Assembly: GCA_041667205.1 (NCBI GenBank)
Contig: JBAYFL010000009.1
Coordinates: 106,732 to 170,731, forward strand
DNA from: Verrucomicrobiia bacterium
GTDB lineage: Bacteria; Verrucomicrobiota; Verrucomicrobiia; CAIQCK01
Direction of reading: 5' to 3'
Length of the DNA stretch: 64,000 bases
Both the position numbers and the translations under genes were made by a program. Positions 4,703 through 42,821 of this stretch are shown in pieces. The stretch's first letter is position 1, and every line of letters starts with the position of its first letter. The notes beneath the pieces are model-generated. The model was not told the DNA's origin, searched no databases, and was given only the letters and a program-made list of their open reading frames with translations.

Positions 4703-6760
4703 CTACTGTAGTTTGAGCGCGCGGAAGAGGTTGTTGTAGTCGTCCGTCCAAAGGAAGAGATTGGGTTGCGGTTTGATCACCTTGCCTCCCTCGCGGATTT
4801 GGGGAGCTGCCAGCAGTGCCTTGTTCGCGGTGACGATGATTTGGTCGGTGTTGTAGAACCACGTTTCCGAATCAGTGTCTTCAGCGTCCACGTCATCGGT
4901 GACCATCACGGCGGTCAGACCGACCTCTGCCGCCAGCGTCGCGACGACGGGGGCGATGTCCACGTAACGGTTGGTCGCCTGGAAGATGAGCGCGCCGCCG
5001 GGCTTCAGGTGTTTGAGGTAGATCGCCATCGCCTCGCGCGTGAGCAAATGCAACGGGATGGCGTCGCCGGAGAACGCATCGAGCGCCAGCACGTCAAACT
5101 GCTGCGACGGCTCGCGTTCGAGACTCAGCCGGCCATCGCCAAGCACCACCTCGGTTTTCGCCGGCCCCTCTGTCAGGAACGTGAACTCCGTGCGGGCCAG
5201 TTCCATCACCTGCGGGTTGATCTCGTAGAACCGGAACTCGTCGCCCTTGCGCGCGTAGGCGATGATCGAGCCTGCGCCGAGTCCGACCACTCCAACCTTG
5301 CGTGGAGCGGTCGGCAGGCTTGTGAACAGCCGCCCAAAGCCGCTCGTCGGTGCAAAGTAGGTGTTGGCCGCGAAGCGCATGTCCATGTCGAGGAACTGTC
5401 CCCCGTGCAGGATCTCGCCGTGCGTTAGTGACCGGAACGATTGTGGCGAGGAGGAATCACTCGTGCGAATGGCACCGTAAAAATTCCGTTTCATCACGCG
5501 CATGCCGGCAATCTGTTCCTGCACTGCCTTGGAGGCTTCGCTCGCCGTCAAACCGATCACCGCCACGCCGAGCGCCAGCGCCCACCAACCGACGCGCCGC
5601 GCAGAGAATGCAATCAACGCCGCGCAGGCCACGAGGCCGATGCTGATCTCGAAGAAACCTCGCAGCAGATACGGCGCGGCAAATCCCACCAGCAGCCCGC
5701 CGAGCGCGCCGCCGATGCTGATCATCAAGTAGAACGTCGTCAGGAACTGCGGCGACGGCTTGCTCCGCGCGAGTTCGCCGTGGCAGCACATGCAGCAGAT
5801 GAACAGCCCGGCGGCGAAAATCGCCACGACCTCTCGCAGGTCCAGAGAACTGGTGTGGTGTGCCATCATCGGCAGCGCCACGGCCACCAGCGGCAGGAAC
5901 ACGATGCGCCGATACCAGCGCGGATGGTCGAAGCAGAAGATGAAGCTTGCCAGGTAGATCGCGAGCGGTGCGATCCAGAGAAACGGCACGGAGGCGACGT
6001 TTTGGCAGAGGTGGTTGGTGACCGCCAGCAGCATGAACGACCCCATCGCGGCTAGCGCCATCCATTCGAGCCGCAGGCCGAGGCTGGGCTTCACGGCCGC
6101 GGGCGGATTGTTCGCAGCTTGCGCAGCCGGCATTGCACTGCCGGAGCGCGCGCCGCTCACGGCGGCCCAGATGCAGAGCACCGCGAACACCACGTAGCAA
6201 GCCGACCAGACGAACGACTGCATGTGCGCGCTCACCCAAGGCTCGATGGTAAACGGATACGCCAGCAGTGCCAGCAGCGACGCGAGATTGGAGAGCGCGA
6301 AGAGCCGGTAGGGCATCGCGTGTTGGTGCCGCCGCGCAAACCACGCCTGCACCAGCGGCGTCGTGGTTGAAAGAAGCAGATACGGCAGCCCGATCGTGAC
6401 AGCAAGCAGGCCGAGGATTTGCCAACTCGGATTCTCCGCGCCGGTCGGCTTCCACGCCGCGCTGGGGATGATCGGCAGCAACAACAGGCTCGCCGCGAGG
6501 AGGCCGACGTGGAGCATCGCCTGCCGCCGGGGCGCAAGCCGGCGAGTCGTCCAGTCGGCGTAGGCATAGCCCGCGAGCAGCGCCATTTGGAAAAACACCA
6601 TGCACGTCGCCCACACCGCCGCCGAGCCGCCGAACCACGGCAGGATTTGTTTGGCAATGATCGGCTGCACGAGGAAAAGCAGGAACGCGCTCAGGAAGAT
6701 CGTTCCGGCGTAGAGCGGCAGCGCGGATGATCGGGGAGGGGCGGCTTCAGCAGTAGTCAC
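4703..6760 (-). CDS. polytopic membrane protein fused to spermidine synthase-like methyltransferase domain
   Basis: GTG start. About 400 aa of hydrophobic helices are followed by VGVVGLGAGSIIAY...FDVLALDAFSGDAIPLHLLTREA...LKPGGALIF, the aminopropyltransferase/SAM-MTase signature. Confidence 0.65.
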   Translation of the reverse strand: MTTAEAAPPRSSALPLYAGTIFLSAFLLFLVQPIIAKQILPWFGGSAAVWATCMVFFQMALLAGYAYADWTTRRLAPRRQAMLHVGLLAASLLLLPIIPSAAWKPTGAENPSWQILGLLAVTIGLPYLLLSTTTPLVQAWFARRHQHAMPYRLFALSNLASLLALLAYPFTIEPWVSAHMQSFVWSACYVVFAVLCIWAAVSGARSGSAMPAAQAANNPPAAVKPSLGLRLEWMALAAMGSFMLLAVTNHLCQNVASVPFLWIAPLAIYLASFIFCFDHPRWYRRIVFLPLVAVALPMMAHHTSSLDLREVVAIFAAGLFICCMCCHGELARSKPSPQFLTTFYLMISIGGALGGLLVGFAAPYLLRGFFEISIGLVACAALIAFSARRVGWWALALGVAVIGLTASEASKAVQEQIAGMRVMKRNFYGAIRTSDSSSPQSFRSLTHGEILHGGQFLDMDMRFAANTYFAPTSGFGRLFTSLPTAPRKVGVVGLGAGSIIAYARKGDEFRFYEINPQVMELARTEFTFLTEGPAKTEVVLGDGRLSLEREPSQQFDVLALDAFSGDAIPLHLLTREAMAIYLKHLKPGGALIFQATNRYVDIAPVVATLAAEVGLTAVMVTDDVDAEDTDSETWFYNTDQIIVTANKALLAAPQIREGGKVIKPQPNLFLWTDDYNNLFRALKLQ

Positions 6761-6847
6761 GGCGGCGAGCGTATGGGTTTGCCGACAAGGAGCAAGCGCG
6801 AAATCAAACGCGGTGCCGCAAGAAAGAAATCAATCATGACGTGCGAG

Positions 6848-6933
6848 CACATAAGTGGGGCGAGTTTCCAAACTCGCCCGCGGGGTTGACGCGAGGCCGC
6901 TGCGTGAGCTTGGAAGCTCACGCCACTTATGTG
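6848..6933. repeat. REPIN-like nested-hairpin element (GTGG-headed)
   Basis: The terminal inverted repeats CACATAAGTGG (6848-6858) and CCACTTATGTG (6923-6933) are exact complements. Each arm has its own hairpin (GCGAGTTT/AAACTCGC and GTGAGCTT/AAGCTCAC). It lies between two minus-strand genes. Confidence 0.6.
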
Positions 6934-7022
6934 GATGAGTGGCGCCGTGTAAACGACAGGTTATGTCTCGCGACGCTCTGCTCCCCGGAAGTGGCGAGAG
7001 TTGCGGCGATATCGGGCGGCGG

Positions 7023-8573
7023 CTATCTCGTCGGAACGCCGTCCGCGGGCAGAAGCCAGACTTCCAACACGCCTTTGTAGCCGTCGAGCCTGACGGAGTT
7101 AACCTGCATGAAAAGGCGGCCGGAGCCGGGGCTGGTGAAGATGATGTCGCAGCCAAGCTGGAAGGGCCGGCCGCTCGCGCCAACGCGGCCGACGAGGGAT
7201 TGGTTGCGCAGCGACGCGCCAAGGGCGTTGTCGAGCGAGGGGGAGCCGTCGGCGGTGGATGGGCCGAAAAGCGGCGAGCTATTCCAATCGCCGCGAGCGA
7301 TGGCGCGGTAGCGCCGTCCTTGCTGCAAATCGAGTCCGCTGTCCTGCCACGGCTTGGCGCTGTCCATGCGCACGGGCTTGGGCAGTGGCGCGCTGCCGCG
7401 GAGCCATCGTTCGGTGGCGAGCCAGCCGGAGTCGAGCGTGGCGGTGATGCGGATGTCGTCGAAGACGGCTTTGGTATCGAGCCCACCGCGAAGGGTGATG
7501 AGCGACGGCGTGAGGCCGAGCGGGGTAGTGAGGGGCGAGGCGTCGTTGACGCGGGCGCGGAGTTGGCGAGTTTCGGTGGCGATGTTGACGACGAACGGTT
7601 CGGTGGCCCGCAGGATGTCAAGCTCGGCGGCCCACTCCGTGCCGTTGCGCAGCGCGAACTTGCGGTCGCTCTTGATGGCTGCTGATTGGCTGCGCAGGCC
7701 GTTGGGTGGTGCAGAGTCGGCCCATTGAGCGAGGCCGATGGAAGTGTAGCCCTGTTCGGGCACGTTGAGGCGGGCGCTGACTTCGACGGGGCCGGTGACG
7801 ACGGCACGCCACAGCATCGGGTCGGTAGCGAGCACGGTGGTGGCGAGGGCGCCGTTGGCAACCTTCCAGTCGTTGCTGGTGCCGCCAATGGCACGCCAGT
7901 CGCTGAGCTGTTCGGGCCGGGAAAAATCATAGCTGATCTCGATACGACCGCCGGCCAGCGGTCGGACACGGCCTTTGAAGAGCGCAGCCATTTGCGCGGC
8001 GGCGTTGAGCACGGCCTGTTGTCGGGCGTTGAGCGGCCGGCCGCTCCAGAAGGTGATGCGTGGCGCGAGCATGGGGTCGAGGTCGAACGCAGCGGTGAAG
8101 TGCGCCTGCGCCTGCGCGTCGAGGCGGAGAGATCGTGCGAGGATGCCGAGACCAAGCTGTTCGTCGGCGGAGCGCGGGTCGGCGGCGCTGACCAGCACGG
8201 CGTAGAGCGAGGCGGGCTTGAGGTCGCCCCACGGCACGCGGGCGGTGACGTTGCCGAGCTTGGTCACGGTCAAGTCCGCGGGGCTGGCGGCGGTGATGAC
8301 GCCTGCGACAACGACGTTGTTGCGCAGGAATAGAGTGACGGGGGCGGAGGGCGTTGCGGCGAGCGCGGTAAGCTGGCGGGTCTTGATCGCTGGCAGGGCA
8401 CGCAATTCAGGCGCGTCGAGCTGCGCGACTGCCTCGTCGAACTGGCCGACGGCAAGGAAACGCATGGCGTTGCTGGCGGAGTTGACGTTGGGGGTGCTAT
8501 TGTCCGCGGCAAAGCCGATGAGACTGGACGCAAGCGTGGCGATCAAGGCGGCGCAGAGTTTCATCGTGCTCAT
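7023..8573 (-). CDS. secreted hypothetical protein
   Basis: 516-aa ORF with signal-like N-terminus MSTMKLCAALIATLASSLIGFAADN (an alternative ATG is at 8564). I could read no confident family motif. The overlapping 441-aa ORF 6830-8155 is a low-complexity shadow ORF. Confidence 0.6.
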   Translation of the reverse strand: MSTMKLCAALIATLASSLIGFAADNSTPNVNSASNAMRFLAVGQFDEAVAQLDAPELRALPAIKTRQLTALAATPSAPVTLFLRNNVVVAGVITAASPADLTVTKLGNVTARVPWGDLKPASLYAVLVSAADPRSADEQLGLGILARSLRLDAQAQAHFTAAFDLDPMLAPRITFWSGRPLNARQQAVLNAAAQMAALFKGRVRPLAGGRIEISYDFSRPEQLSDWRAIGGTSNDWKVANGALATTVLATDPMLWRAVVTGPVEVSARLNVPEQGYTSIGLAQWADSAPPNGLRSQSAAIKSDRKFALRNGTEWAAELDILRATEPFVVNIATETRQLRARVNDASPLTTPLGLTPSLITLRGGLDTKAVFDDIRITATLDSGWLATERWLRGSAPLPKPVRMDSAKPWQDSGLDLQQGRRYRAIARGDWNSSPLFGPSTADGSPSLDNALGASLRNQSLVGRVGASGRPFQLGCDIIFTSPGSGRLFMQVNSVRLDGYKGVLEVWLLPADGVPTR

Positions 8574-38790: not shown

Positions 38791-39054
38791 TCAACCGAAA
38801 AGATTATCGAACTCGTTATGTGTGCCTACCCAGACCCAGGTGATGCTGTCGCCGTGACGTTCGCCGATGGCGCGGTATTGCTCGTTGATGCGGACAGACC
38901 AGACGTGGTCGTAACCGCCGAGTTTCTTGAAACGGAGCGAAGGGTGGTCGGGGTTTTGCGCGAAGAGCGCGTAAGCACGACGCGCAGCCTTGCGGTTGGT
39001 TTCGTTCAACCCCGCATAAGCCCGCCAGAAACTCGGCCGCGTGCGCGAGTTCAC
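38791..39054 (-). CDS. RelE/ParE-superfamily type II toxin
   Basis: 87 aa. The GTG start overlaps the antitoxin stop (GTGA). Block [47 protein letters not shown] is typical of this toxin fold. Confidence 0.65.
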
Positions 39055-39269
39055 AGGCGCTTCGGGTCGAGAGGTTCGTCACCCTCGGCGGCGGATTCGC
39101 GAAGGAAACTGTCCAGCTTCGGTCGCGACTGCGGATAGGCAAGCCGGCGCTCCCACGCTTCATCATCCTGACGGGCGAGGAGAAACCGGGCGAAGTCAAC
39201 CACCTCGGACTGCTTGTCCGCCGGCAGGGCTTCGCAAACCCGGATGATTTCCTCGGTGGTTCTGCTCAT
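39051..39269 (-). CDS. antitoxin (DUF2281-like)
   Basis: 72 aa, directly upstream of the toxin and overlapping it. ALPADKQSEVVDFARFLLARQ resembles the DUF2281 antitoxin motif. Confidence 0.55.
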   Translation of the reverse strand: MSRTTEEIIRVCEALPADKQSEVVDFARFLLARQDDEAWERRLAYPQSRPKLDSFLRESAAEGDEPLDPKRL

Positions 39270-39331
39270 GACAATTTAATAACGTCAAATCGTGGGAAAC
39301 TCAAGCCGGTTTGGTTCCATCTCCGTCCCGA

Positions 39332-39730
39332 TCACTTCTCAATGCCGAGCAATTCCACCTCGAAGATCAACGGGCTGTTCGCGGGGATATCCGGGCTGGG
39401 GCTTCGCTCGCCGTAGGCCAGATTGGCCGGGATGAACAACGTCCACTTGTCGCCCACCTTCATCAACTGCAATGCCTCCACCCATCCCTTGATCACGCGA
39501 TTGACCGGGAACGAGATGGATTGGCCGCGCTCGACCGAACTGTCAAAGACCGTCCCGTTCGTCAACGTGCCGTGGTAATGCACCTTCACCGTATCCGTCG
39601 GTTTTGGCGTCGCGCCCGTGCCGGACTTGATGACCTTGTATTGCAGACCGCTGGCGGTGGTCTTCACGCCTTCCTTTTTGGCGTTCTCCACGAGGAAGGC
39701 TTCGGCGGCCAGGATGGATGCTGGTTTCAT
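39332..39730 (-). CDS. FKBP-type peptidyl-prolyl isomerase, no signal peptide
   Basis: ATG at 39730 ([12 protein letters not shown]..). [62 protein letters not shown]. Confidence 0.85.
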
Positions 39731-39831
39731 AGTGTTGTCAGATTGATATGGATGTTGTTTGATGCGCGGAAAATCAGCGGAGTCAGCCGCCCCGGACAGC
39801 TTGTCCGCCGGCAGGGCATTCTCCGTCCCGA

Positions 39832-40326
39832 TCACTTCTCGATGCCGAGCAGTTCCACTTCGAAGAGCAGGATGCTGTTCGGCGGAATCTGCGGGCTGGG
39901 GCTTTGCTCGCCGTAGGCCAGCTTGGCTGGGATGAACAACTTCCACTTGTCGCCCACCTTCATCAGTTGCAGCGCCTCGGTCCATCCCGCGATCACGCCG
40001 CTGACCGGAAACGAGATCGGTTCACCGCGCTCCACCGAACTGTCAAAGACCGTCCCGTTGGTCAACGTGCCGTGGTAATGAACCTTCACCCCGTCCGTCA
40101 GCTTCGGCGTCGCGCCCGTGCCGGACTTGATCACCTTGTATTGCAGGCCGCTGGCCGTCGTCTTCACGCCTTCCTTCTTGGCGTTCTCCGCGAGGAAATC
40201 GCCGCCGGTGGCGAGCTTTGTGTCGGGCGCCGCATCGGATTTCTTTTCCGCAACCGCCGGTTCTTCTTTCACGCCGCAACCTGCGACCAAGCCGAGAGCG
40301 AGTGTCAGGATCAAAATGTGTTTCAT
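39832..40326 (-). CDS. FKBP-type peptidyl-prolyl isomerase, lipoprotein
   Basis: ATG at 40326 gives the lipobox signal [17 protein letters not shown]. The FKBP core is near-identical to the 39332-39730 copy. Confidence 0.85.
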
Positions 40327-40517
40327 AGATTTGTTCGACTGCATTGATTGTTTTTCGGTGCGCGGAGAATCAGCCAAGCCGGCCACAAGGTCAAGCTGGG
40401 AACGCGAGGGCAGATGGCAGCTTCCCTCTTGCCCCTCGCGGACTCCCGCCATACACTCCGCACCACGATATTCACCAACAGCTGGGACTATGCCAACGGC
40501 TTCACCGGACGAACAAA

Positions 40518-42284
40518 ATGAGCACAACGGCAAACTTCAGAGTTGATCCACGGCTTGCTTCGATTCTTGGGGAAAGCTACCGCAGCAGTGAATACGCGCT
40601 GAAGGAACTGATTGATAATGCTTGGGACGCAGAGGCGACTGAAGTTCGCGTCACGCTGCCAATAATTCTATCTGATGATCCAATTACTTTGGAAGACAAC
40701 GGCAGCGGGATGAAGCCAACCGAAGTGCGCAATGAATATCTCAACATCGCCAACCCGCGATGGACCAGGAAAGGCGAAAAGACACCTAACAAACAACGTT
40801 TGGTTAAGGGCAGACGCGGTGTCGGGAAATTTGCCGGTTTGATCTTGGCTTCGCGAATGGATTTGGAAACCACGGCGTTTGGCACCATGACCAGTATCAC
40901 CGTGGACAAGGAACAATTGCTGCATGCAACTAAGGACTTGGAGCAAGTTCAGCTCCCTTTTTCAACGCAGACAGCCAGCTCATCAAAGAGCGGGACAAAG
41001 ATCGTGTTGTCAAAGCTGAACGCAAACCTAAACCTTCCACAGCCAGATCGGTTGAAACAAGTTTTGGCCCAAGACTACGGACGCGAAACCGACTTCGCTA
41101 TTTTTGTCAATGGAGAGCGCGTATTCGCTTTTGATGTGCCGGGCTCAAAATTTGAGTGTGACGTAAAACTGCCCAACGGCCAGACAGCAAAAGCAACTTA
41201 TACAGTCGCCGACAAACCATTACCGGCAAAGCAAGCGGGTGTTGTTCTGCGACAAGGCGGAAAGACGATCGGCAAAGCACACTTTTTCGGTCTGGAAAAT
41301 AAAGATGAGTTGTCCGACCGCCTGCGCCGCAGAATCGTGGGTGAAGTTAATGTGCCTCCAGACACTATTGAATTAACAGCCGCTGGTGGTGACGTAATCG
41401 AGAGCGATAAGTCCTTTGAGCATCTCGTCAATGAACTGAGCAAACAGTTTGAGGGCAGTCTCACCCAGACGCACACGCGTGAGGTAAATCTTGCGAAGGG
41501 ACGATGGAAACAGCAAATGGAGCGTCGCTTGCTGAATGTTCCGGAACATAGGCGAGGCATCATCGAACAAAGGATGAACCGCCTCATTTCGCGTGCGTAT
41601 CAAGAAGGGGAAAAGGAGGAGCGCATCAGCACGCTCGTGGACTTGGTGTTGGATGCATTGGAGCACGACGAGTATTGGACTGTATGCAATGAGCTTCACG
41701 ACACTGACCGTGCCGATGTTATGCACTTGGCGGATGCCCTTTTGGAGTTTGGTCTCTGCGACTTGGCGTTTATGGGGCGGCAAGCTAAGAGTCGTCTCGA
41801 TTTTCTGAAGTCTTTGGATTTGCTAGCTCGCAACCCGGGCACGCTTGAAAAGCAAATGCACAAAGCGATTGAGAAGAATCTCTGGGTCTTCGGTCCGCAA
41901 TACAGCTTGATGTCCAGCAATCAGCAATTGGAAACGATAGCTCAAGAGTGTGGGAAGAAAGTGACACCTGATGCAAGCAACCGAACTCGACCGGATTTGT
42001 TGCTATCTCAAGACGGTTTTCAAAGCCGGCTCTTAGTCGAGTTCAAGCGCCCAGACTATGAAGTGGGGCGTGACGACGAGACGCAGGCAAAGAAATATGC
42101 AGATTGGTTAAAGTCGCGGCTTCAATTGTCCGTTGATATTGTTGTCATAGGCGGAACGACCGACCCGTCGTTATGTGAGGAATACACAGGCAAGAGGACG
42201 CAGTTCAGCAGTTATGCCAAAGTGATTGCTGATGCGCAGGCGGCATTGGATTGGATGCTTACTCAATTGGCTTCTCGGAAATAA
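40518..42284 (+). CDS. GHKL-type ATPase fused to Shedu-like (DUF4263-type) PD-(D/E)xK nuclease domain
   Basis: AT-richer than the flanks. The GHKL N-box is [10 protein letters not shown]1 is EDNGSGM and G2 is [10 protein letters not shown]. The C-terminus reads [13 protein letters not shown]...[26 protein letters not shown]...[11 protein letters not shown] (D...ExK plus Q..Y). ATG 40518 is preferred over the listed start at 40344. Confidence 0.75.
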
Positions 42285-42527: not shown

Positions 42528-42821
42528 CTACCTTATCTCGTAAACAGGCTGCGATGATTTCGAGTATTCGTAGATATACTTTCCACGGATGTCATACTTG
42601 GGCTGGTTGCCGTTGGGGTAGTCGTAAATGATACTCCCTTTGATCTCATAGCTGGCCTGCGCGCCGCTGGGGTAGGCATAGATCAGGTTTCCACGGATTT
42701 CGTATTTCGGCTGTGAGCCGTTGGGAAACGCGTAGATTCGACCTCCGCTGGCCTGGCCTTCAGCCAACAGCGGCAGGACAAGGAGGAGAGACATGAGCAG
42801 GCGGCTGATGAATGTTTTCAT
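42528..42821 (-). CDS. secreted miniprotein of four 18-aa repeats
   Basis: Signal MKTFISRLLMSLLLVLPLLAEGQA followed by GGRIYAFPNGSQPKYEIR / GNLIYAYPSGAQASYEIK / GSIIYDYPNGNQPKYDIR / GKYIYEYSKSSQPVYEIR. AT-richer than the flanks. Confidence 0.6.
   Translation of the reverse strand: MKTFISRLLMSLLLVLPLLAEGQASGGRIYAFPNGSQPKYEIRGNLIYAYPSGAQASYEIKGSIIYDYPNGNQPKYDIRGKYIYEYSKSSQPVYEIR

Follow-up and report, generated by a model that had tools for sequence, protein, structure and literature searches.

Proteins that join an N-terminal GHKL (Bergerat-fold) ATPase to a C-terminal nuclease in one polypeptide have been described under several names. The paraMORC3 proteins carry GHKL and S5 domains followed by a C-terminal RecB-like domain of the restriction-endonuclease fold with an E-D-ExK signature. 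Their spread is wide but sporadic, and a subset is stand-alone with no conserved neighbourhood (Iyer, Abhiman, Aravind, Biol Direct 2008, PMC2292703). A survey of Shedu proteins lists HATPase_c_3 with an 'N24' middle domain among the enzymatic N-termini of type 1D (Gu et al., bioRxiv 10.1101/2023.08.10.552793; Mol Cell 2025). VcSduA, a GHKL-DUF4263 protein from the WASA lineage of Vibrio cholerae, protects against T1-like coliphages and the vibriophage X29. The substitutions E27A in its ATPase and K557A in its nuclease each abolish protection, and it is predicted to form a dimer and not a tetramer (Adams et al., Nat Microbiol 2025, PMC12137116). The gene considered here lies at positions 40518-42284 of a 64-kb stretch of a Verrucomicrobiia genome (the window; GenBank assembly GCA_041667205.1, contig JBAYFL010000009.1, positions 106,732 to 170,731 of the forward strand) and encodes a GHKL ATPase/PD-(D/E)xK nuclease fusion. 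It probably specifies a DNA endonuclease of the paraMORC3/Shedu type 1D kind that works as a single protein under ATP regulation and serves as a horizontally acquired factor against phages or other mobile DNA.

ATPase, middle domain and linker

The gene is a single open reading frame (ORF) of 588 codons, as the reading made from the letters alone (the sequence-only reading) had proposed. It starts at ATG, and the identical 588-aa protein is called on four independent contigs. A longer version from a TTG at 40344 was rejected in favour of the ATG, because it would overlap the beginning of the divergent FKBP gene, and because the homologues begin at the ATG position. The protein shows all the hallmarks of the GHKL superfamily, namely motifs I-IV, a score above the curated profile threshold and the fold itself. 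The Pfam profile HATPase_c_3 matches residues 23-160 with an E-value of 4.2e-24 and 85.6 bits against a cut-off of 25. The motifs E30-LID-N34-AW-D37, D60-N-G62-S-G64-M and G98-RR-G101-V-G103-KFA-G107 are invariant in 34 full-length homologues extending down to 55% identity, and motif IV (G159-T160) is invariant in them as well. The three boxes that the sequence-only reading had placed in the N-terminal 110 residues all fall within the first 107. The fusion gene appears to encode an intact GHKL ATPase module, for which ATP binding and hydrolysis are predicted.

An AlphaFold2 model of the full protein, built from the alignment of the 34 homologues (mean predicted local distance difference test score, pLDDT, 75.7), comprises four parts: the alpha/beta ATPase, a beta-rich middle (residues ~175-297), a helical stretch (298-438) and a compact C-terminal alpha/beta domain. 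Compared with the PDB by Foldseek, the full-length model matches the ATPase modules of TRAP1/Hsp90 and of MORC2/3/4 with E-values of ~1e-15 over ~390 aligned columns. The N-terminal two thirds of the model thus resemble the combined GHKL and middle domains of MutL/MORC/Hsp90-class proteins. The order described for paraMORC3, GHKL and then an S5-like middle domain, is found through these ~390-column TRAP1/MORC alignments, the S5 fold being judged only within that span. The helical linker contains an invariant LDALExDEYW motif and is specific to the GHKL-fused lineage; relatives in which the nuclease is fused to Roc-COR or receiver modules match the profile from the nuclease core onward only.

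The nuclease core and its tie to Shedu

The C-terminal motifs W456..G459 (NLWVFG), R491-P-D493-L, E508-F-K510 and Q523-AKK-Y527 are likewise invariant in the 34 homologues, which bears out the earlier description of a D...ExK signature followed by Q..Y. Conservation of E444 together with D493 and E508-x-K510 reproduces the E-D-ExK pattern of paraMORC3. In a core alignment that spans all architectures of the domain, W456, D493, E508, K510, Q523 and Y527 are conserved in 33-34 of the 34 sequences.

The link to Shedu comes from profile-profile comparison. Canonical SduA was represented by an alignment of six genes that were recovered from plasmids by tblastn and carry the annotation 'Shedu immune nuclease family protein'. 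Against this alignment hhalign gives 77% (E 2e-5, 128 columns) for the narrow family alignment and 96.9% (E 2e-10) for the diverse 34-sequence core alignment, the latter over 150 columns and hence the whole domain, while reversed-sequence controls give 0.1%. D493, E508, K510 and Q523 align with the D, E, K and Q of SduA. When the domain profile is compared with all solved structures, SduA (8ti8) ranks top (E 0.003), with RPDLLL/LVDFLY and EFKRP/EIKTP in register. The search of NCBIfam is uninformative for Shedu membership, because no model there matches even canonical SduA, and an 82-residue SduA fragment used as a protein-database seed found nothing.

A HMMER search with the nuclease-domain profile returns 1,715 cluster representatives. 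The same core (E 1e-38 to 1e-57) also stands behind Roc-COR modules with SIR2 or LRR, behind receivers, and behind receiver plus GGDEF modules. Shedu proteins are defined by a shared core placed behind varied sensor domains, and the presence of this pattern here supports Shedu membership of the nuclease core. Taken from these alignments, the C-terminal domain appears to belong to the DUF4263/Shedu nuclease clade as a divergent member, and nuclease activity is predicted for it.

Among the relatives found, P0219, P0220, P0222, P0224 and P0239 have the Shedu-type core fused to Roc-COR (with SIR2_2 or LRR) or to receivers (with or without GGDEF), and the Roc-COR fusions amount to bacterial ROCO-nuclease proteins. 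Short proteins of 189-200 aa (P0124, P0126; L028), encoded on long contigs, are 77-84% identical to the C-terminal domain, and some genomes may therefore carry remnants of the gene left by truncation or frameshift.

The C-terminal domain was also modelled separately, because the full-length model returned only GHKL and middle-domain proteins from the PDB. The domain-only model is confident (pLDDT 92.3, predicted template modelling score 0.87). Its best Foldseek matches are the PD-(D/E)xK nucleases NucS/EndoMS (E ~0.03, probability 0.99-1.0, root-mean-square deviation 2.2 Å over 68 columns), Can2 and several restriction enzymes.

Horizontal acquisition and spread

The fusion gene differs from its surroundings in base composition. 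It has a GC content of 0.501, and a GC content at third codon positions of 0.548 against 0.72-0.87 in the neighbouring genes. Its interval has the lowest GC content among all 1767-bp stretches of the window (mean 0.620, standard deviation 0.028) and lies about four standard deviations below the mean. The visual estimate of roughly 50% GC between flanks above 60% was thus accurate.

Metagenome contigs were searched for sister loci by way of the neighbouring radical-SAM gene and its near relatives. This gave two loci (L102 and L103), with neighbour genes 95% and 92% identical to those of the window. Both keep the order SSF transporter, radical-SAM protein, FKBP, VF530, pseudouridine synthase and glyoxalase, and both are without the GHKL-nuclease gene. 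The slot is empty or holds another cassette in these syntenic loci, which makes the fusion gene a strain-specific insertion at a variable position. It was horizontally acquired.

The same slot of L103 holds an AT-rich cassette (6027-6910, minus strand, GC 0.47) of two overlapping ORFs of 122 and 171 aa with no Pfam or PADLOC match, a candidate accessory or defence pair. The ParE_like/DUF2281-like toxin-antitoxin pair near the fusion gene is missing from both sister loci and constitutes a second, independently variable accessory element.

The lineage is large and patchily distributed. Full-length homologues form more than 921 clusters at 90% identity. Among GTDB species representatives there are 328 relatives in at least 10 phyla, at 40-84% identity, with hosts in Verrucomicrobiota, Planctomycetota, Rhizobiales, Bacteroidota, Spirochaetota, Nitrospirota and other groups. 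Full-length copies are also borne on rhizobial, Azospirillum and Caballeronia plasmids.

Genomic contexts of relatives

At 79 reference loci, every ORF up to 4 kb from the gene was clustered. HsdM/HsdS are present at 16 of these, HsdR at 7 and a type IIG methyltransferase (Eco57I/TaqI_C) at 5. The hsd and type IIG neighbours are always co-directional with the GHKL-nuclease gene and often lie 3-25 bp from it. On at least 18 contigs, a homologue 86% identical to the window protein has hsdR on one side and hsdM on the other, within a type I restriction-modification (R-M) system, and an Mrr nuclease gene adjoins the locus. A conserved partner gene was considered and rejected: only the hsd and type IIG methylase genes form neighbour clusters that occur at more than 3 of the 79 loci. 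The gene has no obligate partner, and nesting in type I R-M operons recurs at about 20% of loci.

At the locus of the homologue nested in type I R-M genes (L085, positions 6819-7983; also L086-L090), hsdR is separated from the GHKL-nuclease gene by two small conserved ORFs of 168 and 222 aa without a Pfam match, which may belong to this locus as additional components.

Elsewhere, one relative lies in an island with TIR, AbiEi-AbiEii, HEPN-DUF499, SNF2 and integrase genes, and another in an island with MmeI, IS481, Fic and Schlafen-like genes. Other relatives adjoin DUF2281-PIN, DUF433-DUF5615 or HEPN-RES toxin genes in otherwise housekeeping surroundings.

Proposed function and alternatives

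In the proposed mechanism, ATP binding would lead the N-terminal GHKL domains to dimerise into a clamp. The middle domains and the helical linker would relay the state of this clamp to the C-terminus, where the paired nuclease domains would be licensed to cut DNA only when ATP-bound or substrate-engaged. With cleavage gated by the ATPase state, both the ATPase and the nuclease should be needed for defence. The scheme draws on the MutL, MORC, Hsp90 and type II topoisomerase ATPases and on the VcSduA mutants. That the gene serves defence, as the sequence-only reading had suggested, is supported by context: empty sister sites, and relatives in R-M operons, defence islands, toxin-antitoxin neighbourhoods and plasmids.

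Several observations weigh against an ATP-gated defence nuclease of the Shedu kind. Dimerisation, ATP gating and DNA as the substrate are all inferred from the analogies just named. The window copy sits among housekeeping genes and not in a multi-system defence island. The Pfam SduA_C profile (PF14082) gives 22.8 bits against a cut-off of 27 and covers profile positions 4-65 of 159 only; it is similarly below threshold in 23 of the 34 homologues, while the relatives P0220, P0223 and P0239 of the same clade pass the cut-off (27.5-33.3 bits). The PADLOC SduA models give 14.7-16.4 bits (E 0.001-0.004), against 548 bits for a canonical SduA control, and do not recognise the protein. Foldseek with the C-terminal model finds no PDB match at E ≤ 0.001 and no solved SduA chain in the top 50, which is why the Shedu link is based on profile-profile comparison; the fold search supports the PD-(D/E)xK class for the modelled domain and does not show the specific Shedu link. 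The DUF4263/Shedu-like assignment of the sequence-only reading holds in the hhalign comparison and in the ranking of 8ti8 but not at the SduA_C cut-off or with the PADLOC SduA models, and the structural comparison yielded a confident domain model whose matches are of the PD-(D/E)xK class. Finally, BLASTP and profile comparison of residues 1-399 of VcSduA (AWB73059.1, 673 aa) with the window protein and its family give nothing significant (hhalign 0.7%), so that functional transfer from VcSduA rests on architecture and not on orthology.

The protein could instead be a restriction endonuclease of the BbrUII/HgiDII kind whose methyltransferase is encoded elsewhere, or one that is modification-dependent (type IV-like); its targets would be particular sites that are unmodified or, alternatively, bear a particular modification. 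The NCBIfam BbrUII/HgiDII model (NF050001) matches the protein at either end, in the N-terminal ATPase (27-204) and in the C-terminal nuclease (profile 463-580), and the PADLOC REase_II models match the N-terminus. The window protein also aligns collinearly over residues 28-555 with a protein of the Pseudomonas aeruginosa plasmid pY89 (24% identity, E 8e-22), including the W…PD…ExK…Q..Y series. The pY89 protein is encoded tail-to-tail with a DNA cytosine methyltransferase and fits the BbrUII/HgiDII model end to end. These alignments point to full-length homology of the family with methyltransferase-linked BbrUII/HgiDII-like enzymes, and the recurrence of relatives in type I R-M operons also suits a restriction enzyme. 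However, the NF050001 score of the window protein is 132.8 bits, far under the family cut-off of 550, and the C-terminal domain alone gives 23.7 bits. No methyltransferase accompanies the window copy: Pfam finds none within 10 kb of the gene, and HsdM, type IIG and C5 methyltransferase queries find no homologue in the 64-kb window. A C5 methyltransferase is near the gene in only 1 of 80 relatives. A sequence-specific enzyme without its cognate methylase would be toxic to its own cell. A BbrUII/HgiDII-like role is unlikely.

The nesting in hsd operons raises a further possibility. About one fifth of lineage members are packed at translational distance inside these operons, and the HATPase_c_3-type lineage might be functionally coupled to type I R-M, either as a reserve or alternative nuclease that is driven by ATP and comes into action, in the manner of a PrrC-like guard, when the R-M complex is blocked, or as an additional subunit for restriction. 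Copies that stand alone would then be orphans turned autonomous. Such a coupling of the whole lineage is doubtful.

A related proposal makes the protein an accessory or guard of the type I R-M system. The anticodon nuclease PrrC, nested in the EcoprrI hsd locus, provides the model, and the window copy would be an orphan parted from its hsd genes. The co-directional hsd neighbours at a few base pairs' distance and the homologue placed between hsdR and hsdM agree with this logic, but about 80% of relatives, the window copy included, are without neighbouring hsd genes. Defence genes of unrelated kinds are moreover known to settle in type I R-M loci, so a nested position does not by itself imply a functional tie. 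A guard function is accordingly quite improbable for the window copy. A housekeeping role in DNA repair or chromosome organisation, to which weak MutL N-terminal matches, the work of GHKL-nuclease fusions such as MutL in repair and the housekeeping genes immediately around the window copy might point, is most improbable given the absence of the gene from sister genomes with 92-95% identical neighbours, its foreign base composition, its patchy spread over phyla and plasmids, and the recurrence of its relatives in R-M and defence contexts.

Features of the locus

The features of the protein and its surroundings are collected in Table 1. The two genes that flank the fusion gene are both on the opposite strand, and the gene is therefore without a co-oriented partner. 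The toxin-antitoxin pair ends 1,249 bp upstream, with two FKBP genes intervening. The sequence-only reading was right on both points, having noted the lack of a co-oriented partner and a RelE/ParE pair about 1.2 kb away.

Table 1. Position of the fusion gene, its domains and motifs, and nearby features in the window
Feature	Position	Strand	Basis
GHKL ATPase/PD-(D/E)xK nuclease fusion gene, stop codon included	40518..42284	+	ORF list; ATG start, 588 aa
Predicted GHKL (Bergerat-fold) ATPase domain, residues 23-160	40584..40997	+	Pfam HATPase_c_3, motifs, Foldseek
N-box E30/N34/D37	40605-40628	+	ELIDNAWDA motif
DxGxG box	40695-40709	+	EDNGSGM motif
Glycine-rich ATP lid	40809-40838	+	motif III
Predicted beta-rich middle domain (transducer, S5-like/'N24'-type), residues ~175-297	41040..41408	+	AlphaFold2 model, pLDDT 80-90; Foldseek span of N-terminal and middle domains
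Long helical linker/coupling region, residues 298-438	41409..41831	+	AlphaFold2 helices; low confidence at 385-412
Predicted Shedu-type (DUF4263-related) PD-(D/E)xK nuclease core, residues 439-588	41832..42281	+	domain model, hhalign, PDB sequence match
D493	41994-41996	+	catalytic motif
E508-x-K510	42039-42047	+	catalytic motif
Q523xxxY527	42084-42098	+	QxxxY motif
Low-GC islet (GC ~0.50) coinciding with the fusion gene	40453..42284	.	composition; between FKBP gene and small repeat-protein/radical-SAM genes
ParE_like toxin gene	38791-39054	-	Pfam/ORF list
DUF2281-like antitoxin gene	39051-39269	-	paired with ParE_like toxin

The FKBP-type peptidyl-prolyl isomerase gene is tandemly duplicated (39320-39619 and 39820-40119, 300 nt each, 86% identity), and the sister locus L102 has apparently one copy. 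On the other side of the fusion gene, 42528-42821 on the minus strand encodes a protein of 97 aa that has a signal peptide and contains four copies of a repeat reading approximately IYxYPxGxQPxYEIRG. Its GC content of 0.52 is below that of the flanks, it has a weak, sub-threshold DUF7359 match, and it is present in L103 and not in L102. A 27-nt inverted repeat (42979-43005/43050-43076, 93% complementary, 44 nt apart) lies between this gene and the radical-SAM gene. No tRNA is found in the 64-kb window and no direct repeats flank the fusion gene; promoter and terminator scans gave results no better than shuffled sequence.

Comparison with known systems

The architecture itself is already known: it appeared as paraMORC3 in 2008 and as Shedu type 1D in 2023/25, and was validated in VcSduA in 2025. 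The paraMORC3 proteins have the same domain layout, patchy spread and stand-alone state as the window family. They are a computational description, and the window family is likened to them by architecture. A gene product named 'ParaMORC3' in Escherichia phage PhiR44_1 (PV340563.1, 8473-9054) has only the common N-terminal GHKL part in common with the window protein, with 27% identity over residues 7-199.

Shedu type 1D, as set out by Gu et al., has the same order of HATPase_c_3, Hsp90/MORC-like middle domain and C-terminal DUF4263-type nuclease in a single gene. The GHKL plus N24 class is catalogued only, and the window protein itself is under the SduA_C threshold; a survey seeded with PF14082 may therefore have missed much of the lineage. 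Canonical SduA (8ti8 of Bacillus cereus; E. coli SduA) has a homologous core, with the TxEK…W, D, ExK and Q motifs in register with the window protein. Its N-terminus is a non-enzymatic clamp or sensor and it forms tetramers, whereas the N-terminus of the window protein is a predicted ATPase and a dimer is expected by analogy with VcSduA.

VcSduA is the only experimentally validated example of the GHKL-Shedu kind. It resembles the window protein in being a single polypeptide with an N-terminal GHKL domain, a middle domain and a C-terminal DUF4263 nuclease, and E30 and K510 of the window protein are the motif equivalents of its E27 and K557. VcSduA has 673 residues, compared with 588 in the window protein. 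Residues 1-399 of VcSduA give no HATPase_c_3 match, and among 543 published homologues of the VcSduA model none has DNAWDA or VKGR[RK]G, though N-boxes of the VcSduA type are present. Judged from these differences, the window gene appears not to be a VcSduA orthologue and to belong to a different sequence lineage. Being distinct, the lineage would offer an independent test of whether ATP gating is a general trait of GHKL-nuclease defence proteins.

The BbrUII/HgiDII enzymes and the pY89 relative have a GHKL … PD-(D/E)xK architecture collinear with that of the window protein. These enzymes are paired with a DNA methyltransferase and the window gene is without one. Homology to these enzymes and nesting in type I R-M operons together provide a tractable case for relating restriction enzymes to methylase-free effectors of the Shedu type. 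The lineage is annotated only as 'ATP-binding protein', and it is under-counted in defence censuses because both PADLOC and the Pfam SduA_C threshold miss it. The window gene represents an uncharacterised new lineage of a known kind of defence protein and not a new system; it fills in the existing picture of Shedu and paraMORC3 without changing it.

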